Position numbers and translations under genes: made by a program
Virus record (IMG/VR): IMGVR_UViG_3300042196_000102
Location: 1 to 58,406 of that record
Source: a virus
DNA length: 58,406 nucleotides
Strand: one strand, 5' to 3'
Part shown: positions 6,986-58,406 of the stretch, piece after piece
How positions within the stretch are numbered: position 1 is the first letter of the stretch
Layout: each line of letters opens with the position of its first letter
The notes under the pieces: model-generated
What the model was told of the DNA's origin: nothing
The model's input: only the letters and a program-made list of their open reading frames with translations
Database searches by the model: none

Positions 6986-7588
6986 TTACTCCTTGTTGCC
7001 CGCCAGCGCCTGGGCCACCGCCGCTGCCACCACCGCCCCGATTGCCTTCAGAGAGGCATCGTCGATGGTCACGGCCCTCAACACAACCCCCTCCGCCGCC
7101 CCTTGCGACGGTTCCAGGTTCCACTCGTGGTCGATGGCGATGTCGCTGTGCCGTACCGCCTGCTTGCCCACCATGTTGGCCGTCTCCACCGCGTTCTGAA
7201 GTGCCTGGAGAGCCACCTTGCGGGTGTCGTTGTCGTGGGTCTGGGCATCCGAGAGCACCTTGTCCACATACGACCGGTTCCGTTTGATGGACTCCAAGGA
7301 CTCCTGCTGGTACTCGTCGTAGGTCCGCTTCACATTGGCGAACAGTACCCCCTGGTTGTCCACGCCGGCGGTCTGCAACCTTTCGGCAAACCCTGTCTCC
7401 TCCTGGAGCACCTGTGTGGCCTGGGAGCTGAGCTTCTGGGCCAAGTCGGATACGGCTTGGTTGACTTGTTGAGCAGTCTGTGAGGCGGACTGTACGCTTG
7501 CCGCCGCCTGCGCCACCTGCTCTACCAATTGCGCGATCTCACGGGCGGTCGTGTCAGACCGCTCTGTTTCACCTGCTTGTTTGTCCAT
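6986..7588 (-). CDS. Hypothetical coiled-coil protein (200 aa)
   Basis: The N half is Gln/Ala/Ser-rich and heptad-like. No family recognised. Confidence 0.65.
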   Translation of the reverse strand: MDKQAGETERSDTTAREIAQLVEQVAQAAASVQSASQTAQQVNQAVSDLAQKLSSQATQVLQEETGFAERLQTAGVDNQGVLFANVKRTYDEYQQESLESIKRNRSYVDKVLSDAQTHDNDTRKVALQALQNAVETANMVGKQAVRHSDIAIDHEWNLEPSQGAAEGVVLRAVTIDDASLKAIGAVVAAAVAQALAGNKE

Positions 7589-26584: not shown

Positions 26585-27322
26585 ATGGCTCCGAACATTG
26601 GCTTCCCCCCTAGTAAATTCGGGTGTCACACGGAGGTGATGATGTACACGAAAACCTGCCTCTGGTGTTCTACGGCTTTCACAACAGTCAGAAAGAAGAG
26701 GATCTACTGCTCCAAACGATGCAGCTTGGTCCACAGAAACACGAAACCAAGGGATGTGGTCTATGTAACAAAACCTTGTGCCTACTGTGGCAAGTTGTTT
26801 GAGAGCCGGAGATGCCTGCATAAAATTACCTGCTCGTTGAGTTGTCGCACATCCTACAATAACACGGTTCCGGTGGAAACTAGATTGCTGTCGAGAATAC
26901 AAATTGACCAGTCCACCGGCTGCTGGAACTGGCAGGGCCACTTGAGTGTACTTGGGTACGGCAAGATTTCGCGTGATGGTAGACTCCAGACCGTGCATAG
27001 AGTTTCCTACGAGATAAAGTACGGAAAGATCCCATCCGGCCTTGAACCAAACCACAAGTGCAGGAACAGGGCATGTGTCAACCCCGATCACATTGAAGCT
27101 GTCACGCATCAACTCAACATCTGGTATGCTAGGGGAATCACAAGCACGCACTGGGGTTGCGGCCATGAAAAGACGAGTCCAAACTCCAGGACGACTAGCA
27201 GTGGCTCTATCGTATGTGGGATTTGCGCCAGAACAAAAGAGAGAGAGAGATACCGCAAGGACCCCGAGAAGTACAAGGCCCGAGTGGCGGCAGTATACTA
27301 CAGAAAAAAGGCTAGTCGATAA
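26585..27322 (+). CDS. HNH homing endonuclease (HNH_3-like) with N-terminal Zn fingers
   Basis: 245 aa on the opposite strand, at lower GC. The pattern is CWNWQGHLSVLGYGKISRDGRLQTVHRVSYE...HKCRNRACVNPDHIEAVTHQLN, plus CLWC...CSKRC and CAYC...CSLSC. Confidence 0.85.
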   Translation: MAPNIGFPPSKFGCHTEVMMYTKTCLWCSTAFTTVRKKRIYCSKRCSLVHRNTKPRDVVYVTKPCAYCGKLFESRRCLHKITCSLSCRTSYNNTVPVETRLLSRIQIDQSTGCWNWQGHLSVLGYGKISRDGRLQTVHRVSYEIKYGKIPSGLEPNHKCRNRACVNPDHIEAVTHQLNIWYARGITSTHWGCGHEKTSPNSRTTSSGSIVCGICARTKERERYRKDPEKYKARVAAVYYRKKASR

Positions 27323-28808
27323 GGCCTGGTGATTCTGCACGATATACCCCTCCTGTGATGCTGAGCAGCTTGCTTCTCGGGCTATAAAGTAACAACGGTT
27401 GATAACCAGATTCTTCCCCAAGCTTGTGCACGTAGTCACTCAACTCAAAGTTGTCAAACTTCTTTCGGGCTTGGTACACAAGCGATGTTAACACGCCCAA
27501 CACCATTGAGTCCTTGATGAACTTGGGACTATCCATCTTAAGATCCCGCAGACTTACCTCCTGATCGCCTCCCTCCACATAGAGTTGCCGCCCGTCCTCG
27601 GAGGCGGCCAAGTACGGGGCGTCCTTGTTGAACCGGATCGTGGCGTCCAGGCCGGAGAGGGTGGCCACCTTCAGCTCCACGAGGGTCCCGAGGGTGGCTA
27701 GGTACTCGTGCTCATGGACCTCGGTTTCCACGGTGGTGACGTGCTCGGCTGGGGCGCCGGTGAAGCCTTCGACAAGGGTGGCAGCAGAGGACTCGGGGTT
27801 GCGCTTCACACTCGCCGCGCCTCTACGAAATGCCTTTTCCCAGTCCGAAAGCCCATAACCACTGGGTGTGGGTCGAGTCCGACCCCAGCCAGCAGTAAGG
27901 TCTGCAGTCTCTCTGTCGTACCATTCAGCATACGCAACATTGATTGGACCAACACCACCACTTAGACGCCAACGCTTGCCAGCCTCGAAGGGTATGTCAA
28001 TGTTGCTGTCGTCGGGGTTGGTCCTCTTCCGCGCTTCCCTTTCCCGCGTCTCGGCGGGATTCCACCTCACCACCTTCGCGGGTGGCACATCCTCCAAGTA
28101 CTGATCCCCGCTGGTGCCGGGCCGGATGTCCACCATGGTCATCCTAACCGTGCCCACCGGAGTTACTTGGGACCCCATGCTGCTCACACTCACCCGGTAT
28201 CCCAACTTACGGAGGGTGGAGGCACGGGCCTTGATGTCCGGGTCTCCTGTTTCGTAGGACTCCTGAATCCAGTCCCGGCCACGGGTTTGGAGGGCAGCGG
28301 GATTCTCTACAGGATTGCCAGTTGGTTTGTAGAGAATATCCCGGTGACCGTAACCAGCAGGACCCAGACTGCGGATTCTGAGTTGTGGATGCCCCTTCTC
28401 AGCCAACTCAAAAAGCCTATTCCAGTCGGAAGCCCATAGGATCACGTTGTCGGGTGTAACATGGATCTCAATACCATCCACTTCGCGGACGTACTGTGGA
28501 CGTGGATTCCTTCTCCCCGGCACCACCGTAGCGTACTCCTTGTACCGTGGGGACTTCTGCCTGAACCTCCAGTAAGTCGCCCCCTTGTCCACCTTCCCAC
28601 TCACAAACCCGTGGTCCCGGAGCCACTTCTGGGCCTCCCCGATACCCCACTTCACCTTGTCAAAGATCACTGACTGGACTTCGGACACCCGCCTGCCCGC
28701 CTTGCGTGCGATCCCCAGCACAAACTTGATGCCCTCGTCCGGGTTGGCAAGCTGGGACACCCAGACCTCAGTGTCAACATGGTGGCATAGGCTTGACCTA
28801 CGCGGCAT
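27312..28808 (-). CDS. Large hypothetical virion-block protein (498 aa)
   Basis: ATG 28808 gives MPRRSSLCHHV. It looks modular, with segments separated by basic-x-N-P linkers (RRNPRP, RWNPAE, RTNPDD, KRNPES). No ATPase or portal motifs seen. Confidence 0.7.
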   Translation of the reverse strand: MPRRSSLCHHVDTEVWVSQLANPDEGIKFVLGIARKAGRRVSEVQSVIFDKVKWGIGEAQKWLRDHGFVSGKVDKGATYWRFRQKSPRYKEYATVVPGRRNPRPQYVREVDGIEIHVTPDNVILWASDWNRLFELAEKGHPQLRIRSLGPAGYGHRDILYKPTGNPVENPAALQTRGRDWIQESYETGDPDIKARASTLRKLGYRVSVSSMGSQVTPVGTVRMTMVDIRPGTSGDQYLEDVPPAKVVRWNPAETREREARKRTNPDDSNIDIPFEAGKRWRLSGGVGPINVAYAEWYDRETADLTAGWGRTRPTPSGYGLSDWEKAFRRGAASVKRNPESSAATLVEGFTGAPAEHVTTVETEVHEHEYLATLGTLVELKVATLSGLDATIRFNKDAPYLAASEDGRQLYVEGGDQEVSLRDLKMDSPKFIKDSMVLGVLTSLVYQARKKFDNFELSDYVHKLGEESGYQPLLLYSPRSKLLSITGGVYRAESPGLID

Positions 28809-29442
28809 TGTGAAGCCTCCCGGCAACCAGTGACTTGTCAAACAGCCTCTTACTTGCGTTAGTGTAGAAGTCGTACCTACCCGTCCCACTACGGTCCTCG
28901 GCATATTTGAATGTGGCCGCGTATCCGCTCTCCCGTAACATACGTTCAACATACTCTGCTACTACCTGGTCCATGTCGGTGGTGGCAGGCAACCTGAACT
29001 TGTGACTATAGTTCACACCCCTAAACTCCGGGTTCGCCTTCCCCTTCCCCCACTCCCCAATGAACCTCTTGGCCTCCACCGGCGTGTCAAACCGGCTCTC
29101 CGGGTCAATCGAGGGCACCATCCACCCCCCAGCAGAGGGTAGGATGTCGTGCCCTTTGTGGCGGGTGGGCCGACCACGCGGGACCCCGGCGGCAGAGGAG
29201 GAGGCGGGGGGCCGGGTGACTCCGTGGCCACCCAGCATACCGAACAGGGACTCGGAGCGGGCACGAGCGAGGCCAAACGGGTTACCCTTGCCTCTCCTTT
29301 TGCGCCTTCGCCCCAACACCCCCGCAGCCAGCGCCAACTCCTCCTCCAGCAATCCAGGGCCGGGGGTGAGCAGCAGGGCGGCAAGGTCGGACTGGTTGGC
29401 CTTGAATTGCACCCTGACACGTCTTGTGGCTGTCCTGCTCAT
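28798..29442 (-). CDS. Hypothetical basic protein (214 aa)
   Basis: ATG 29442 overlaps the upstream TGA (ATGA). It contains RRRKRRGKGNPFG and KGKANPEF. Confidence 0.6.
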   Translation of the reverse strand: MSRTATRRVRVQFKANQSDLAALLLTPGPGLLEEELALAAGVLGRRRKRRGKGNPFGLARARSESLFGMLGGHGVTRPPASSSAAGVPRGRPTRHKGHDILPSAGGWMVPSIDPESRFDTPVEAKRFIGEWGKGKANPEFRGVNYSHKFRLPATTDMDQVVAEYVERMLRESGYAATFKYAEDRSGTGRYDFYTNASKRLFDKSLVAGRLHNAA

Positions 29443-39151: not shown

Positions 39152-39530
39152 CTCGCAGCAGACACCTTCTCCTTGTGTCCACTACGGGTGTCAAGGCCGG
39201 GATCATCCCGTCGTGCCGGGTCGCCCGACTACGGGCGGGGTCGGCAGCGCGGAAGGGTTGGCAATCTCCCTCCACAACCCGCAGCAGACACTCTTTCCTG
39301 TGTCCACTACGGGATGACGTTTTGGTCTGGGCGGCGCTCACCATCATTCCCGCAGCAGACACTCTTTCCTGTGTCCACTACGGGAGCCGGTCACCGTGGA
39401 CTCGGTCGGCCAAACGCCCCCCGCAGCAGACACTCTTTCCTGTGTCCACTACGGGGGCAGTGGGACTCCCAAGCGGGACAAGGCTGACGAGGCACCCGCA
39501 GCAGACACTCTTTCCTGTGTCCACTACGGG
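39152..39530 (-). CRISPR. Mini-CRISPR array: 4 identical 36-bp repeats plus 1 degenerate terminal repeat
   Basis: CCCGCAGCAGACACTCTTTCCTGTGTCCACTACGGG lies at 39278-39313, 39349-39384, 39420-39455 and 39495-39530. The unique spacers are 35, 35 and 39 bp. A degenerate copy with a 1-nt insertion lies at 39152-39188, separated by 89 bp. The strand is inferred from the repeat hairpin (G-U versus C-A pairs) and from the degenerate copy lying at the distal end. Confidence 0.9.
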
Positions 39531-39657
39531 GGCGGTTGGGCTAACCCCAAATATCCCCGTCGCTTAAGCCGCTTTCCGCGAGCGGTTGGGGCGGCAAGCG
39601 TCCCCGCCGGTGATCGCGCTTGGCCTGGCGGTGGCCAAAACATTGAATCCATTACAA
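39531..39657 (-). other. Putative CRISPR leader / possible scaffold-RNA region
   Basis: This is the 127-bp interval between the effector-like ORF's stop and the first repeat. It holds only short hairpins (CCGCT-N7-AGCGG at 39569-39585, the palindrome GCTTAAGC). I found no convincing promoter in it. Confidence 0.3.
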
Positions 39658-40842
39658 TTACTCCTTTGCGAGTGGTTCTTGGGGTTCCTTCTGCGTCTGG
39701 CCGCTCGCGTGTTCCAGCCGCACCCCGTACTCATCCAACTTGGTCCTGATCGCCTCCCGCAACTGGAACCACGGGAAGCTGGCTGCCCCGTCTGGTCGCG
39801 GTGGCAAGAATCCAGTGACCGAATCGTCATACACCACTATCTTGTAGCGGTGGGCGAAATTGGCGAGGGATGCCGCGATCTGCTGAATGGCCGTGTTGAG
39901 GCGCCTCCGGTACTTTTCCACCAGATTAGCGCGCCGGCCTGCAAATGTGGGTACGGGACGCTGCTCAGCCTTCTGGTCCTCGGCCAGCCTTTGCCTCTTC
40001 CGGTCGTACTCTTGAATCCAGCGGCGCAGGTGGTCACCGTTGTAGATCCAAGGCCGGTCCCGCTCCGGGTCCACCGCAACCAGCAACTTGTCGGCACAGG
40101 TCCGCACGTGTAGCTCCCCAGACTGCTCCCCCGTGCGGTCCTGTCGGGGCAACCAGGCAACCATCTTGCACAGGATCTGCCCGTCGTTGTGGCGCAGGAT
40201 TGCCGCTTCCCCCCGGATTGCCGATCCGTCTACCATCTGACGGATGGCTGCCACCTGTCGCCGGTAACGAAGCCCTCCACGTAGGCGTAACTCCCAGCGC
40301 TTGCCCCCAATGCGCCCGGAGAACACGGGGCGGTTGCCACTATCGAAGCCGATGGACCAGGATTGGTTGTGGATCGGGAAAGGCTGTGGGTAGCGGCAAG
40401 TGGGTAGGGAGGCCCCAGCCGTCCACACAACCTCATAGCGCCGCTTGCGGTACTTGCGCTGGATTGCTTGTTCCAGAGACGCTACCGATTGCGGGGTCAG
40501 GTTGGGGAACTGGCGGCGGGCCTCAGGGTAGAGGTACTGGTGGGGCATGGAGGGCATTTTCTCTTGCCCGTCACGCCGCACGTCTCCGGTATAGAGTTGG
40601 GTCATCATCCAGTTGGAGCATTGAGTGGTCTGGACCCACATCTGCTTGAGGGCGGTACGCAACTCCTCCCAAGCGCCGCTCAGTGGTTCCGCGACCGGCA
40701 TGGTGGTGGCACGGAGGAGGTAGCGGGAGGCCCAACAGTCCGGGCAGTATACTGCGACGGGATCGGTTTGAGGGCGACGGTGCCAGCCGTGGGGCAGGCG
40801 CTTGTCGAGTTTGTGCTTACGGTCACAACCGGTGCAGCCCAT
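39658..40842 (-). CDS. Compact TnpB/Cas12-like protein lacking the RuvC-III / C-terminal Zn-finger region (candidate nuclease-dead RNA-guided effector)
   Basis: 394 aa. ATG 40842 follows GAGGAGG with a 7-nt gap. The N terminus has C3-x2-C6 ... C33-x2-C36. LLVAVD258 and KIVVYD339D are spaced about 80 aa apart, like the RuvC-I and RuvC-II strands. WFQLREAIRTKLDEYGV follows, and the ORF ends 55 aa after D339 with no CxxC pairs or third catalytic Asp motif. The homology is judged by eye only. Confidence 0.5.
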   Translation of the reverse strand: MGCTGCDRKHKLDKRLPHGWHRRPQTDPVAVYCPDCWASRYLLRATTMPVAEPLSGAWEELRTALKQMWVQTTQCSNWMMTQLYTGDVRRDGQEKMPSMPHQYLYPEARRQFPNLTPQSVASLEQAIQRKYRKRRYEVVWTAGASLPTCRYPQPFPIHNQSWSIGFDSGNRPVFSGRIGGKRWELRLRGGLRYRRQVAAIRQMVDGSAIRGEAAILRHNDGQILCKMVAWLPRQDRTGEQSGELHVRTCADKLLVAVDPERDRPWIYNGDHLRRWIQEYDRKRQRLAEDQKAEQRPVPTFAGRRANLVEKYRRRLNTAIQQIAASLANFAHRYKIVVYDDSVTGFLPPRPDGAASFPWFQLREAIRTKLDEYGVRLEHASGQTQKEPQEPLAKE

Positions 40843-40890
40843 TCAAGTCCTCCTCAGTTTGTACTTTGACCATTTCCCATAAGGGCCAAA

Positions 40891-40949
40891 GGGGGAAATG
40901 GGGAGGGGGTAAGGGGGTGGGGGAGAGGGGGTGGGGAAGGGGAAAGGGG
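40891..40949 (+). repeat. Nine consecutive G4-5 tracts (G-quadruplex-prone; C-rich on the coding strand)
   Basis: G runs of at least 4 lie at 40891, 40900, 40905, 40913, 40919, 40927, 40933, 40939 and 40946, within the 141-bp intergenic region upstream of the effector-like gene. Confidence 0.8.
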
Positions 40950-44269: not shown

Positions 44270-44576
44270 CTTTCCTCCTCTTGATTGGCCGAGCTAGTTT
44301 TCCTGTGTCCAGACGCCAAGCCATCCTTGCCAGCACATCTCCATGGCACGGCTGGGGACTGCACCAGCATCCGAGCACCTTGCCCCCCAGATATGCCACA
44401 TGCTCCCTAATCCAAACAGCGTTGGGGTCATTGCTGGTTGTGACCCACTGCTCAAACAACTCAATGATTCGCTCGCGGCTACCGTCCACCCCAATTCTGA
44501 ACGGATTGCCCCAAGGCCCCGGCCTGCCGATGTACACGTCGTAGGCTTCCCTTTTGCAATGGACCACCCGCGTCAT
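44250..44576 (-). CDS. DUF4326-family protein
   Basis: 108 aa from ATG 44576 (ATGA overlap with the polymerase stop). The pattern is VHCKREAYDVYIGRPGPWGNPF ... LGCWCSPQPCHGDVL. Confidence 0.7.
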   Translation of the reverse strand: MTRVVHCKREAYDVYIGRPGPWGNPFRIGVDGSRERIIELFEQWVTTSNDPNAVWIREHVAYLGGKVLGCWCSPQPCHGDVLARMAWRLDTGKLARPIKRRKDEQSIG

Positions 44577-45874
44577 TTCTCCAGCGCCCCCCAACTCTGC
44601 GCCGCCCCCCCACTCGACTCGACCGGCACACTGAGGGGCACCGCCGTCTCCATGATCGCCCCCGCCATCCCCAGGAAGTCATCCACAATCGGGTCACTGC
44701 ACTCAAACAGCACCTCGTCGTGGATCTGGAGCAGGGGCAGGCAGGTTTCGGAAGGGTACCGCCCAAAGTACTCCACCAGCCCCCTCAACTCGTACATGAC
44801 CACCTTGATAAGCCCCGCCGCCCCTGCGCTGATGGGGTGGTTGGCCGCTTCCCTCAGCCCACGGTTGGCCACGCCCCGGTGTACACTCTTCGCCTCGGGC
44901 ACAAACCGGTGGCGCCCGAACTCGTCCCAGTTCAGCATGTACCGGCGGGCACGGGAGAAGTACTGCTCAATGAGGTCCTGCACTCCCGAGTAAAGGGCGA
45001 ACCAGCCATTGATGTAAGCCTGGCACTCCTCCTCCGTCTTCACGATCCCTTCAGCCAGCAGGCGCAACTGGAGGCCCTTGGCGGTGATGAGATACAGGAC
45101 AGCGAACCCAAGATGCTTGGCCGCGTACCTTTCGTCGGGGGTCACCTGGTCCTCGGGCTTGCTCCCCAACCCCGCAGCAGTGGCTTGGTGGATGTCCCGC
45201 CCGTCGAAGAACACCTGCACTAGTTTGGGATCTTGGGAGAGGTGGGCGACCTCGCGCATTTCGATTTGGGATAGATCCCTGCCCACAATCTTGTGTCCGG
45301 GGGATGCAATGAACCCAGCCCGGATCTCCCGACCCAATTCTGTACGGATGGGTATGTTTTGCAGGTTGGGGTCCTCACTAGCCAGCCTGCCGTTGCGGGC
45401 CGTGGTGGACTTCAACCGGGTCCTCAGCCTCCCATCCCGCCCCACCATCATGGGCAGCTTGACCACAAACACGTTCTCCAGTGTGTTCAACTCCCGGTAC
45501 TCCAGGATGTCCCCCACCACAGAGTGTTGCCCCCTCAGCCCCTCCAGGATGTCCTGGTCTGTGGACTCCCGGCTCCCGGTTGGGGTAAGGCGCATGAGGC
45601 CATGCCCGAGGCCCAACTCATCAAACAGGAGGGCGGCCACCTGGTCCCCCGACACCGGGTTGAGGTCCCGTCCCACCTGTGCCCGTATTCTCCCTTGGCA
45701 CTCCCCCTTGAGTTGCCGGATGTGGACCCCCAACTGGGCGAAGTGGGCCTGGTCCACCAAGATGCCGTTGTGGTTCATGGACTCGATGAGGGGCAGGCAG
45801 GCGTGGTCCAGGCGGAGGACATTGGCGGGGGAGGGGGCGGATAGGGGGAAGCGGCAACCGTTGGAGAGGCGCAT
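44573..45874 (-). CDS. Family A DNA polymerase, polymerase domain only (split PolA, C-terminal part)
   Basis: 433 aa. The motifs are DLSQIEMREVAH (motif A), RYAAKHLGFAVLY (motif B) and LQIHDEVLFE (motif C). RLASEDPNLQNIP is also present. Confidence 0.9.
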   Translation of the reverse strand: MRLSNGCRFPLSAPSPANVLRLDHACLPLIESMNHNGILVDQAHFAQLGVHIRQLKGECQGRIRAQVGRDLNPVSGDQVAALLFDELGLGHGLMRLTPTGSRESTDQDILEGLRGQHSVVGDILEYRELNTLENVFVVKLPMMVGRDGRLRTRLKSTTARNGRLASEDPNLQNIPIRTELGREIRAGFIASPGHKIVGRDLSQIEMREVAHLSQDPKLVQVFFDGRDIHQATAAGLGSKPEDQVTPDERYAAKHLGFAVLYLITAKGLQLRLLAEGIVKTEEECQAYINGWFALYSGVQDLIEQYFSRARRYMLNWDEFGRHRFVPEAKSVHRGVANRGLREAANHPISAGAAGLIKVVMYELRGLVEYFGRYPSETCLPLLQIHDEVLFECSDPIVDDFLGMAGAIMETAVPLSVPVESSGGAAQSWGALEK

Positions 45875-46260: not shown

Positions 46261-47067
46261 TCAGCCTTTAACACTTTCAAGGAATCGGCTTTGATAACCC
46301 TGGATCGTGGCCAACGCGTGCTTGCCAGCAGTCTCAAAAGCCTGGAACATATCCAGCACTTGGGCGGTCGGAATGTCGCCCTCCTCATGTGCCTCCAACA
46401 CCCTCCGCATTGCGTTCACATTCACCATGGAGAGTGACTTGAACCTGCTTCTTAGACTGGCTTTTGCATCAGCTACAAGGCGACTGCGCACCAAGCGCCC
46501 CTTTTTCTCGCCCAATTCCTTCCGCAGTCGGTCTTCCTCTACGTTGAAATGCTTGACGGCCTCAGGGACCTTCATTTCGCCATTGAGCACGGCTTGCTTG
46601 GCTTCCCTCACTCGCTTGGCACCCTCGTTGCTCCGTACATCCGTCAAAAACCTCAGTATGATGGACTTGGGCAACGGCACAAGCTCCACAATCTGAGCCT
46701 GCTTGATGCCTTGGGAGAGCATCAACGCGATAGTGCGCCTGATATCGGAGCGGGTGATCGGTTGGGGACCCCCCATATTGGCTTTGAGAGCCGCCCCAAA
46801 CTGATGGGCGCGATCCTTGTATACCCTTACCTCACAGTCAACCTCAGTTCGATTGAGTAAGGACAGGGCTTCCAGGCGGTGCCTGCCGTCGATTACAGAA
46901 TAGTCACCATCCGGCTTTGCCGTAACTTCCAGTGGCGGCAGTTTCACCCCAGATTCATACAGTTCGGCTAATTGCAGAACTCTTTCCGGGTCTGTTGCCA
47001 CCCGGATGAAGAAGTCCACCTTCAGTAGTGCAATTGATATCGTCTTAACCATCGTAAGCTCCTTCAT
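46261..47067 (-). CDS. ParB N-terminal-domain-like (ParB/Srx) protein
   Basis: It has the VIDGRHRLEAL motif. The second ATG (47052) follows an AAGGAG SD and may be the true start. Confidence 0.7.
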   Translation of the reverse strand: MKELTMVKTISIALLKVDFFIRVATDPERVLQLAELYESGVKLPPLEVTAKPDGDYSVIDGRHRLEALSLLNRTEVDCEVRVYKDRAHQFGAALKANMGGPQPITRSDIRRTIALMLSQGIKQAQIVELVPLPKSIILRFLTDVRSNEGAKRVREAKQAVLNGEMKVPEAVKHFNVEEDRLRKELGEKKGRLVRSRLVADAKASLRSRFKSLSMVNVNAMRRVLEAHEEGDIPTAQVLDMFQAFETAGKHALATIQGYQSRFLESVKG

Positions 47068-47170: not shown

Positions 47171-48592
47171 TCATAAGTACTCCCTTCTAAACCCTCTCAC
47201 CTTCCCCTCCAACACCCTCTTTAGCCTCAAGGTCCCTATGGCATCCTGCCCCGCGTAGTCCACGGCCTCCTGCTCCGGCACGTGGGCCAGAGAGGGCTGG
47301 GGCAACTCCTCCCTCATCAACTCAAACAGGAGGGCCTGGTCCTGGGCGTGCCACCCGTCCCACCGCTTCCAGGGGTCCACCTCGCCCCCTTCCCTTGCCG
47401 CCCTCTTGTCCCGATCCCTCAGCACCCCCTGCACTTTCCTCCAGGTCTTCACCTGCCCCTTAGGTGCATCGACCCACACCCTCTCCTCCTGTTGGCCCTT
47501 CCGTGGTCCCCCACGCAGGGTGTGCTGGTAGGTGTACTGGCCCCTACACTCCTCGCTTGCCCGCTCCAGCCACCCGTAGGCCACTTGGCGGGAGTGTGGG
47601 TACGTGACCTCTTCGTAAGACCGCATCCTCATCCCCAGCAGGCGGTAGGAGAGGGCCTTCAGACCTTGCGGAAGGTAGCCCAGGACGTAGGCGGCTTGCA
47701 TAGTGTCAAAGAACTTAGTGATGGGGGGGCAGCCCATGGCGGTGAGGACCGGGTTGTCGTGAAGGTAAGGGTGGAGGATGACCAGCGGCTCCTGTGCCCT
47801 CTCGTACCCGCCGCTATCGTAGTATAGCCACCCTGTATACCATTGAACAAACAAATCCAGAGCGGGTGTACTCGGCCTTACCACATACCCACTGTCCGGC
47901 TGCCAAGCAAAGGACAAACAGAAAGGGTCCTCTTTAGTGCCTTCCGTATCCACCGCAATCTCGGGGGGGTCCTCTAGGATCAACCCGGCGTCGAGCACAT
48001 CCTGGGCTGTGTGGAGTAGTCGGCACGTCCGGTTAGGGTATTGGTCCGTTGGGGCCACCAGTTCCCCCCTCAAGTAGCGCCCGAGGTCCTGGAAATCCTG
48101 CCTCAGCCTCAGTATCCATTGCCCTTCGTGTAACCCCGCCGCCGGGTGATACACCGGGAAGACTGTACCCTCCCACTCCCCCCCGAGCAGGGAGTTGGTT
48201 TGGGGCAACCCGTGCTCCGTGTCGAGGTCGATAGGGGTGTCAAACAGGGAGCAGGCCACGGCACCCATCGGCACAACCACCTCCGGGCGGCAGTACCGCA
48301 GCTCCTTGGGGAGGTGGAACTGGGAGCACTGGAGGGCCTCCTGGGGGCTGGGGTTGAAGAAGCCAGAGCGGGGGGAGCGGCAGGCGTTGGTGGTGTACAC
48401 CTCGGAGCGGAGAAGGCCGGCCAGGGGGAGGTAGTGGCGGTCGTACTCCTTACCTGCCCGGCCCGCGAAGTTGCGCCCTTCCCGCTCTTCGTCCCGCGCA
48501 GGGCCTTCCCCGATGAACATAGTGGGGCAGGGAGTGGGGCCGTCCGGGGGGATGTCGCGGCCAAGGCAGACGGGGCAATGGGAAAGGGGCAT
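47171..48592 (-). CDS. UDG-family-4-like domain fused to a 3'-5' exonuclease domain (split PolA, N-terminal part)
   Basis: 473 aa. The UDG-like motifs are MFIGEGPARDEEREGRNFAGRAG and HPAAGL. The Exo motifs are IAVDTEG (D-x-E) and VDYAGQDA (Y-x3-D). Confidence 0.8.
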   Translation of the reverse strand: MPLSHCPVCLGRDIPPDGPTPCPTMFIGEGPARDEEREGRNFAGRAGKEYDRHYLPLAGLLRSEVYTTNACRSPRSGFFNPSPQEALQCSQFHLPKELRYCRPEVVVPMGAVACSLFDTPIDLDTEHGLPQTNSLLGGEWEGTVFPVYHPAAGLHEGQWILRLRQDFQDLGRYLRGELVAPTDQYPNRTCRLLHTAQDVLDAGLILEDPPEIAVDTEGTKEDPFCLSFAWQPDSGYVVRPSTPALDLFVQWYTGWLYYDSGGYERAQEPLVILHPYLHDNPVLTAMGCPPITKFFDTMQAAYVLGYLPQGLKALSYRLLGMRMRSYEEVTYPHSRQVAYGWLERASEECRGQYTYQHTLRGGPRKGQQEERVWVDAPKGQVKTWRKVQGVLRDRDKRAAREGGEVDPWKRWDGWHAQDQALLFELMREELPQPSLAHVPEQEAVDYAGQDAIGTLRLKRVLEGKVRGFRREYL

Positions 48593-58113: not shown

Positions 58114-58406
58114 CTTCTGTCCAATACGGTTGCCTCTCCTCGCTGGCGGCGATGGCCATCAATTGCCCGATGTACTTCTGGAGTCTCTTCCCTACCAACG
58201 CCGCCTGCTTGACGGTCAGGTTCCGGTAGGGCTTGCTGTGTTCGGCAATTTCGGACAGGATTGGGGCATCCACCCCGTTGAACCCGACCCCGTTCAGGAA
58301 AAATGTCTGGTTTTCAGACTGCTCATCCTCGGTCTGCCTCCTGTACATGGCTTGGAGCATCCGCCAGATCAGGTACCGATTCTCAAACTGCCAACACTGC
58401 GCGGTT
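58088..58406 (-). CDS. C-terminal part of the junction-spanning 138-aa hypothetical protein
   Basis: The frame stays open to the window end and continues, through the 127-bp duplicate, to ATG 225. The track reports only the 90 aa from an internal Met (58360). Confidence 0.6.
   Translation of the reverse strand, partial: TAQCWQFENRYLIWRMLQAMYRRQTEDEQSENQTFFLNGVGFNGVDAPILSEIAEHSKPYRNLTVKQAALVGKRLQKYIGQLMAIAASEERQPYWTEDEGERNEY
58280..58406. repeat. Second copy of the 127-bp terminal overlap
   Basis: Identical to bases 1-127. Confidence 0.95.

Follow-up and report, generated by a model that had tools for sequence, protein, structure and literature searches.

The window analyzed here, the 58,406-nucleotide (nt) stretch that makes up positions 1 to 58,406 of the IMG/VR virus record IMGVR_UViG_3300042196_000102, carries on its minus strand a gene for a Cas12f-like effector protein (39658..40842), followed by a putative tracrRNA- or omegaRNA-like scaffold (39531..39643) and by a small CRISPR array. 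The gene is an ATG-initiated open reading frame (ORF) of 394 amino acids (aa), with the Shine-Dalgarno sequence GAGGAGG, read directly from the sequence (40849..40855, minus strand; CCTCCTC on the plus strand), located 6 nt 5' of the start codon, so that the ORF is indeed well initiated, as stated in the initial annotation, which had been made from the sequence alone. The public gene call for this ORF (P0001) starts at M48 and comprises 347 aa; because the homologs align from residue 1 and the cysteines C3, C6, C33 and C36 are conserved, the 394-aa start, and not M48, is the correct one. The encoded protein consists of an N-terminal C4 zinc ribbon formed by these four cysteines, the WED and REC domains, and a truncated RuvC domain. 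No cas genes were detected among the tested neighbors in the window, in agreement with the initial annotation, and no sigma factor or helix-turn-helix (HTH) gene adjoins the effector gene there. The 141-nt gap between the effector start codon and the upstream ORF contains a G-rich 14-nt tandem repeat, AGGGGGAAAGGGGG (3.4 copies, plus strand, 40890-40936), which may be part of the promoter or of the 5' leader.

With the single effector sequence as the query, no significant match was found in Pfam, PHROGs or PDB, so that the relationship is visible only through profiles and fold comparison. The NCBIfam guided_TnpB model matched residues 270-377 (E = 5.6e-6, below the curated cut-off), and the PADLOC models of Cas12f and Cas12u3 matched residues ~53-235 in 4 of the 4 family members tested, with E~4e-7 (for Cas12f, 3.6e-7 on residues 53-225 of the window effector). 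A family profile, A1, built from 84 homologs, aligned along nearly its entire length with two Cas12f structures, 9nzq (E = 9.5e-6; profile positions 109-384 against residues 81-374 of 433) and 9i8y (E = 7e-5); it did not match the dead Cas12f (dCas12f) 9n9c at E<=10. In a Foldseek search of PDB with the AlphaFold model of the effector (pLDDT 93.8, pTM 0.85), the best match was AsCas12f (8j12_A; E = 1.9e-18, TM-score 0.65), and the top 24 matches were all Cas12f or dCas12f; in the ranking, Cas12f was followed by natural dCas12f (9n9c/9n9m) and then by TnpB, Cas12k, Cas12m, TranC and Fanzor. Among viral predicted structures, the effector fold matched TnpB-like proteins. The effector is a Cas12f/TnpB-fold protein, with the WED-REC-RuvC architecture recognizable both by profile and by fold. 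The TnpB/type V layout that had been discerned by eye is therefore supported by NCBIfam, PADLOC, the comparison of profile A1 with Cas12f, and Foldseek, and the profile and structure searches, which could have revealed an unrelated fold, returned the Cas12f fold instead.

In the alignment with profile A1, the RuvC-I strand of Cas12f, "LGVDMG", corresponds to L244-H-V-R247-T, with an arginine in the position of the catalytic aspartate, and the RuvC-II strand, "IQMED", corresponds to V-V-Y-D339-D340. Across the 84 members of the family, the RuvC-I position is basic in 73 (R in 60, H in 8, K in 5) and acidic in none, and the RuvC-II position is occupied by D in 68, N in 9, K in 3 and E in 1. The RuvC-III strand and the zinc finger/TNB are absent from every family member examined: 10-19 residues follow the last strand, and any CxxC after RuvC-II is present in 1 of the 84 sequences. 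Thus, the family lacks two of the three catalytic residues together with the whole zinc-finger/TNB module. These alignments agree with two earlier assignments, that of VVYDD to RuvC-II and that of WFQLREAIR..YGV to the helix-strand that follows it, and the observation that the protein stops after this helix-strand, without a zinc finger or RuvC-III, extends to all 84 members. The assignment of LLVAVD258 to the RuvC-I strand, however, was incorrect: the aligned position is R247, and D258 is Asn in 51 of the 84 members. The N-terminal C4 ribbon, listed in the initial annotation as an extra feature, is present and invariant in the family, but is not unique to it because an N-terminal zinc finger is also present in Un1Cas12f (PMC10606334). 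Longer family members were considered as potential intact intermediates and rejected, their extra residues being low-complexity tails or the result of over-extended ORF calls.

The 127 nt that separate the stop codon from the first repeat are predicted, from covariation, to encode a conserved, structured, pseudoknotted RNA of ~113 nt, with five nested helices and a pseudoknot. The downstream regions of the homologs share the motif …GCTCGCGGAA.GC.G..TAAG….GGGATAT… located at a constant distance from the stop codon. The scaffold helices were derived from an alignment of 14 sequences, in which 87.7% of the cells are paired, compared to 37-45% with slid partners, and the covariation score is 0.51, compared to <=0.11 in the slid controls. 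A covariance model built on the same alignment places the scaffold on the gene strand, directly 3' of the gene, in 38 of 41 loci; the three loci without a match (labels L001-L062 denote the homolog loci compared with the window) are L034, which lacks sequence 3' of the gene, L041, which is a gene fragment, and L026. In the 58-kb window, the model has a single match (39513-39643, 133 bits). Among 44 model-aligned scaffold copies, 90.7% of the cells are paired (~40% in slid controls), compensatory changes are found in 30 of the 32 pairs, and the pseudoknot helix, which is outside the model, is 85% paired. The scaffold segment ACGGGG is complementary to the first 6 nt of repeat 1; in the 44 copies, the pairing of "nnnGGGG" with these 6 nt amounts to 97.7%, with 4-5 pair types at three positions. 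No Rfam family matches the scaffold. The arrangement appears to be that of type V-F, with the array 3' of the gene and a putative repeat-pairing tracrRNA in between. Because the repeat co-evolves with the scaffold and the scaffold accompanies the gene (in the 38 of 41 loci), the array is tied to the effector protein.

The array directly abuts the scaffold 3' end and consists of four identical copies of a 36-nt repeat, CCCGTAGTGGACACAGGAAAGAGTGTCTGCTGCGGG on the gene strand, each forming a perfect 14-bp hairpin (-23.8 kcal/mol). On the minus strand, repeat 1 (39495..39530) is followed by spacer 1 (39456..39494; 39 nt, TGCCTCGTCAGCCTTGTCCCGCTTGGGAGTCCCACTGCC), repeat 2 (39420..39455), spacer 2 (39385..39419; 35 nt, GGGCGTTTGGCCGACCGAGTCCACGGTGACCGGCT), repeat 3 (39349..39384), spacer 3 (39314..39348; 35 nt, AATGATGGTGAGCGCCGCCCAGACCAAAACGTCAT) and repeat 4 (39278..39313), with a start-to-start spacing of 75, 71 and 71 nt. 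Beyond repeat 4, there is an 89-nt terminal guide region (39189..39277, minus strand) that begins with TTGTGGAGGGAGATTGCC and continues into an eroded repeat remnant, CCCGTAGTCGGG, and then a 37-nt degenerate distal repeat (39152..39188, minus strand) that retains both stem arms and has indels in the loop. Such erosion at the gene-distal end, seen in the remnant and the degenerate copy, is expected of a CRISPR array, in which the scaffold-distal end is the old one. Chance cannot account for four exact 36-mers with regular spacing, and all the elements of the array reported originally, namely, the four perfect repeats, the degenerate copy, the 35/35/39 spacers and the distance of 127 bp from the gene, were recovered. 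Spacer 1 is 4 nt longer than the other spacers in the window, and its 3' ~19 nt (39456-39474, TTGGGAGTCCCACTGCC) mimic the terminal hairpin and pseudoknot strand of the scaffold (39531-39552, TTGGGGTTAGCCCAACCGCC), which suggests that the array might have grown by partial duplication of the scaffold end together with the repeat and that only the first ~20 nt would be the guide.

The family to which the effector belongs is large. A word-indexed search retrieved 298 relatives, of which the top 120 are 46-62% identical, and an exhaustive profile search retrieved, at E<=1e-3, the representatives of 1,237 clusters (50% identity), 686 of them at E<=1e-30. Nearly all the 1,237 representatives are 385-430 aa long, and such a constant short length across diverged sequences indicates that the short form is native and under selection. 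In every case, the source name of the family member is "hypothetical protein". The genome matches come mostly from metagenome-assembled genomes of Acidobacteriota (Bryobacteraceae, Solibacteraceae, Acidobacteriaceae); the 16 genome matches are on 16 different contigs, all from differently named isolates, and no contig has more than one match. A further 22 loci are on IMG/VR viral contigs, and the chromosomal copies are found amid genes of mobile elements, such as integrase, toxin-antitoxin pairs and ParA. Two bins that yielded matches (L009 and L013) are labelled Candidatus Saccharibacteria, all the other matches being from Acidobacteriota or Planctomycetota, and these labels probably result from misbinning or from a mobile element.

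The window and 19 loci have an array that begins exactly at the scaffold 3' end (2-13 repeats with a period of 71-75 nt), and in ~18 loci there is a single repeat-like hairpin, that is, one guide. The order of gene, scaffold and array is maintained from 35% to 59% protein identity. The coupling of gene and array noted at a single locus is, accordingly, a property of the family, with homologs found beside arrays in 19 loci. Clustering of the neighboring ORFs in 40 loci yielded no conserved partner gene (no cas1/2/4, sigma factor, HTH, transposase or Tn7), and Pfam searches around L001-L003 detected no adjoining sigma factor, HTH or transposase gene. In three loci (L013:3058-4385, L027:1078-1810 and L023:5183-7409), one effector gene is followed by two or three tandem whole scaffolds, each with its own hairpin and presumed guide, which resemble omegaRNA-type arrays and not CRISPR arrays. 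Duplicated or near-duplicated spacers within one array (L028, 5491-5529 and 5640-5678; L020, 5028-5063 and 5100-5135) point to recombination-driven array dynamics. In the single-guide locus L001, a perfect 22-nt palindrome, AGCTTGACTATATAGTCAAGCT (7366-7387), is located a few nt past the hairpin, at the expected guide site, and may function as an operator or terminator instead of a guide. A TonB-dependent-receptor-like gene of ~1,100-1,290 aa adjoins the effector locus in L001 (7544-11404), L005, L016 and L019, just downstream of the guide, a setting reminiscent of the SusCD genes targeted by sigmaE-dCas12f; within the locus DNA analyzed, no guide matched these neighbor genes.

The position of the guide can be deduced from three syntenic loci, L007, L008 and L014, in which the proteins are 65% identical, the hairpin stems covary, conservation extends over ~20 nt 3' of the hairpin, and the sequences diverge further downstream. 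This conservation places the guide, ~20 nt long, on the 3' side of the repeat, the arrangement of type V and TnpB systems, and would suggest that the host target of the chromosomal copies is fixed. In the single-guide chromosomal loci, no guide match above chance was found within 9-13 kb. To identify targets of the arrays, 121 spacers were compared with the carrier and sister contigs by local BLAST, and the comparison was repeated with 10-kb flanks. Spacer 1 of L061 (L061:1492-1533) matches perfectly (42/42) the intergenic region, the AAGGAG and the ATG of the carrier's own major head protein gene (phrog_29, 9e-87). Spacer 1 of L062 (44/44; L062:8227-8270) matches the head-maturation protease gene of the sister phage L061, spacer 5 of L024 (38/38) matches nt 41-78 of the carrier's own DNA methylase gene, spacer 1 of L035 (35/35) matches a small phage gene just upstream of the effector, and the terminal guide of L035 (25/26) matches a neighboring HTH_20 gene. 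The guides point both ways relative to the target genes, and that of L061 has the same sense as the mRNA, which implies that the target is DNA and not mRNA. Furthermore, perfect matches to the carrier's own genome are tolerable only if no cutting occurs and, hence, fit binding without cleavage. In the sister phages L061 and L062, spacers 2-4 are shared, whereas the scaffold-proximal spacer 1 differs; in both phages, spacer 1 is unusually long (42 and 44 nt), begins with CGTGCA, and matches the head-gene region of L061. This pattern resembles polarized spacer turnover, possibly with some sequence preference, in a locus that has neither cas1 nor cas2.

The element that carries the locus is ~58.3 kb long, with a GC content of 60.6%, and is a complete circular assembly because its first 127 bases (1-127) are identical to the last 127 (58280-58406). 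It encodes a phage-type replication set that includes a primase-helicase, a family-A DNA polymerase, a ParB-like protein, a methylase, an HNH endonuclease, a Sak4-like annealing protein and a helicase. The similarity to family-A DNA polymerase extends over two ORFs, with the ParB-like gene in between (44573-45874, 46261-47067 and 47171-48592). Several relatives of the effector are clearly carried by phages because head genes are present on the same contigs.

We consider it likely that the locus is a complete, compact, nuclease-dead type V-F-like system, consisting of the protein, the scaffold and the mini-array, on a circular, phage-like element. Under this scenario, the gene, scaffold and array would be transcribed together, and the protein would bind the scaffold along with the repeat hairpin, with the ~20 nt 3' of the repeat serving as the guide, as suggested by the position of the guide in the orthologs. 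The complex would then form an R-loop on matching double-stranded DNA (dsDNA) and stay in place, blocking transcription or replication without a cut; we infer the non-cutting R-loop from the dead RuvC site and the perfect self-matching spacers in the relatives. Binding or silencing without cleavage, the function suggested in the initial annotation, the reading of which was essentially correct, is a proposal backed by spacers of the relatives that perfectly match the carrier itself or its kin. The phage-borne copies are likely to regulate phage genes through RNA guides and/or to exclude closely related phages, and the chromosomal copies with one fixed, conserved guide are probably regulators of host genes.

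Several observations weigh against this interpretation. Three acidic residues are strongly conserved, D340 in 83 of the 84 family members and D289 and E293 in all 84. Neither Pfam nor PHROGs recognized a capsid, portal or terminase gene in the window, so that the virus-borne, phage-like nature of this element is only probable. RNA binding, DNA binding and the absence of cleavage are all features that we infer. The lack of a scaffold in cis for spacers 2-4 complicates the proposed loading of guides. Because the self-matches were found in metagenome assemblies, the array-carrying strain could differ at the target. The five protospacers yielded no protospacer- or target-adjacent motif beyond G/C at position -1. 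For the spacers of the window itself, the best match within the window is 14/16, at 48577 on the minus strand, which is about the level expected by chance; there is no match to INPHARED phages, and no exact 20-mer match of guides S1-S4 in IMG/VR. In the JGI metagenomes, S2 has no match, and the four matches of S3 are seed-only, 21-24/35 identical, and from unrelated samples; these matches were considered as candidate targets and discarded as chance.

Among the other explanations, the one we take most seriously, although it appears rather unlikely, is that the dead effector is a recruiter that brings RNA polymerase or a sigma factor, a recombinase, or a replication protein to the DNA, with the partner replacing the missing C-terminus. 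In sigmaE-dCas12f, a partner domain replaces the lost zinc finger and RuvC-III (PMC10691335, PMC13472631), the invariant D289, E293 and D340 could form an interaction surface, and the TonB-dependent-receptor-like genes adjoining L001, L005, L016 and L019 recall the SusCD targets of the dCas12f-sigmaE system. However, no conserved partner gene of any kind emerged from the 40 loci, the window effector is not adjoined by a sigma factor or HTH gene, and the identified targets, which are in coding regions and on a ribosome-binding site (RBS), fit blocking better than promoter-independent activation. We see still less reason to favor a protein that remains a nuclease, with a rearranged or composite site (D339/D340 together with D289/E293, dimer- or host-completed), and acts as a conventional anti-phage or anti-plasmid weapon. 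The same conserved acidic residues (D340, D289 and E293), the active rearranged RuvC sites known from TnpB clades (PMC10691335), and spacers that match essential phage genes, like immune spacers, are compatible with this possibility. It is contradicted by the RuvC-I position, which is basic in 73 of the 84 members and never acidic, by the absence of the RuvC-III strand and zinc finger from every member examined, and by the perfect matches to the carrier's own genome, which would be lethal if the effector were a nuclease.

The last two alternatives deny the link between the parts or their current function. The array could be independent of the ORF, being either a stand-alone viral mini-array served by a Cas effector of the host or an RNA anti-CRISPR decoy beside an unrelated gene, both of which had been offered as alternatives in the initial annotation. 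There are no adaptation genes, and there are known cases of viral mini-arrays that depend on host Cas proteins; yet, the repeats vary by locus and covary with the anti-repeat segment of the scaffold 3' of the effector gene, and the gene-scaffold-array order at 35%-59% protein identity is a coupling that extends across the family, so that we regard such independence as very improbable. The least probable explanation, in our assessment, is that the gene belongs to a TnpB/IS element in decay, or is a pseudogene, now functionless and accompanied by the vestige of an omegaRNA. The truncated C-terminus and the TnpB-like match below the curated cut-off would be compatible with decay, but the length stays constant across the 1,237 diverged representatives, some residues are invariant and the RNA covaries, all of which implies purifying selection, and there is neither a TnpA neighbor nor a genome contig with more than one match.

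Returning to the nuclease-dead V-F-like system, a more specific and decidedly tentative extension is that phages of Acidobacteriota encode a Cas12f derivative incapable of cleavage and employ it as a programmable immunity repressor, the guides of which are renewed without Cas1-Cas2. If so, the lytic program would be held down or timed by guides directed at the phage's own genes for capsid, protease, replication and methylase, incoming relatives would be silenced as well, and scaffold-proximal spacers would be gained without Cas1-Cas2, as L061 and L062 suggest. Such a system would combine an RNA-guided counterpart of the CI repressor with Cas1-independent guide renewal.

Nuclease-dead, truncated Cas12f homologs have been reported previously. 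Altae-Tran et al. 2023 (PMC10691335) described Cas12f lineages that lost activity together with RuvC-III, and Hoffmann et al. 2026 (PMC13472631) characterized the sigmaE-linked dCas12f in Bacteroidota, so that the novelty of the family described here is lower than the initial annotation assumed. The latter work (Extended Data Fig. 1a,b) also includes a cluster of dead Cas12f beside CRISPR arrays, with a covarying upstream RNA, identified by bioinformatics only. Compared by description only, this CRISPR-linked cluster shares with the present family the C-terminally truncated RuvC, the array neighbor, the covarying RNA upstream of the array, and the proposed repression, but its example comes from a chromosome of Chitinophagaceae (Bacteroidota), with a guide to an efflux-pump promoter, whereas the present family is found in Acidobacteriota and their phages, and its guides match phage structural and replication genes. 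The sigmaE-dCas12f proteins (9n9c/9n9m) have a similar truncated, RuvC-dead Cas12f fold (Foldseek E = 4e-15, TM-score 0.60-0.67) and a scaffold with a 3' guide, and about half of the loci of the present family are likewise single-guide. Unlike sigmaE-dCas12f, however, the present family has no rpoE or HTH partner and keeps CRISPR arrays, the identity in the structural alignment is 12-15%, and the likely outcome here is repression, not activation.

AsCas12f, Un1Cas12f and OsCas12f are the best structural and profile matches and resemble the present system in small size, repeats of ~36 nt, the lack of adaptation genes, and a tracr-type RNA located between the gene and the downstream array; however, Cas12f cuts DNA with a full D-E-D RuvC triad and has a C-terminal zinc-finger TNB, and the present protein has neither. 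TldR proteins (PMC10705468) are also small, RuvC-dead, C-terminally truncated relatives of TnpB that are often phage-encoded, act or are proposed to act as RNA-guided repressors, and use a short guide. The TldRs, however, derive directly from transposon TnpBs and, with a single guide of the omegaRNA type, repress genes of the host (flagellin, opp), whereas the present family is closest to Cas12f by fold and profile and has multi-spacer arrays, phage-gene targets and no fliC/opp neighbors. Cas12m and Cas12k bind DNA without cutting dsDNA, with Cas12m silencing transcription and Cas12k directing Tn7-like transposition, but these proteins are ~600 aa or more, keep the C-terminal part of RuvC, and are matched in Foldseek only at 1e-6 to 1e-8; moreover, Cas12k travels with tnsB/tnsC/tniQ, none of which is found beside the present family in the 40 loci. 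In contrast to the TnpB of IS200/IS605 or IS607, the present family has no transposase neighbor, shows one match per contig (16), and has a dead RuvC. The family would function much as the published dead Cas12f systems and the TldRs do. By the defining features of each group, it is not active Cas12f, sigmaE-dCas12f, TldR, mobile TnpB or Cas12k.

Medvedeva et al. reportedly described, in 2019, virus-borne mini-arrays involved in interviral conflict, with spacers that match closely related viruses. Such mini-arrays are said to rely on host Cas proteins and cleavage, whereas in the present case both the dead effector and the scaffold RNA are encoded by the virus itself. We found no paper on the present clade, and Acidobacteria are not mentioned in the main text of PMC13472631 or PMC10691335. 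A search with a hidden Markov model of the Cas14 C-terminal domain detected no Cas14 homolog in Acidobacteria (PMC10606334); the present family lacks this domain. What is new compared to the published work is the host phylum, the phage-borne location, the retention of arrays together with the scaffold, the lack of a partner gene, and the guides against phage genes.

At ~390 aa, the effector would, if it binds DNA as proposed, be among the smallest natural array-linked RNA-guided DNA-binding proteins and, given a defined scaffold RNA, is a candidate for compact CRISPR interference or recruitment tools. The family is large (more than 1,200 clusters at 50% identity), unannotated, and present in soil Acidobacteriota and their phages. 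The single-guide loci, tandem scaffolds and true arrays form a natural series for the study of the interconversion of omegaRNA guides and CRISPR arrays. The phage guides that perfectly match the RBS of the carrier's own capsid gene and replication genes lead to the testable idea that phages use a dead CRISPR effector for self-regulation or for the exclusion of relatives.

Two further observations concern the carrier elements. The loci L034 and L040 are one effector homolog split over the two ends of IMGVR_UViG_3300036859_000658 (40.5 kb), so that this genome is probably circular, and a scaffold follows the 3' half of the split homolog (L040:574-719). In the window, a 546-aa ORF on the minus strand (27312-28952) has homologs that share only ~30% of its length, the rest being variable; these homologs are hypothetical proteins only, on contigs of 54-61 kb, which fits a modular tail-fiber-type protein and a group of related elements of like size.

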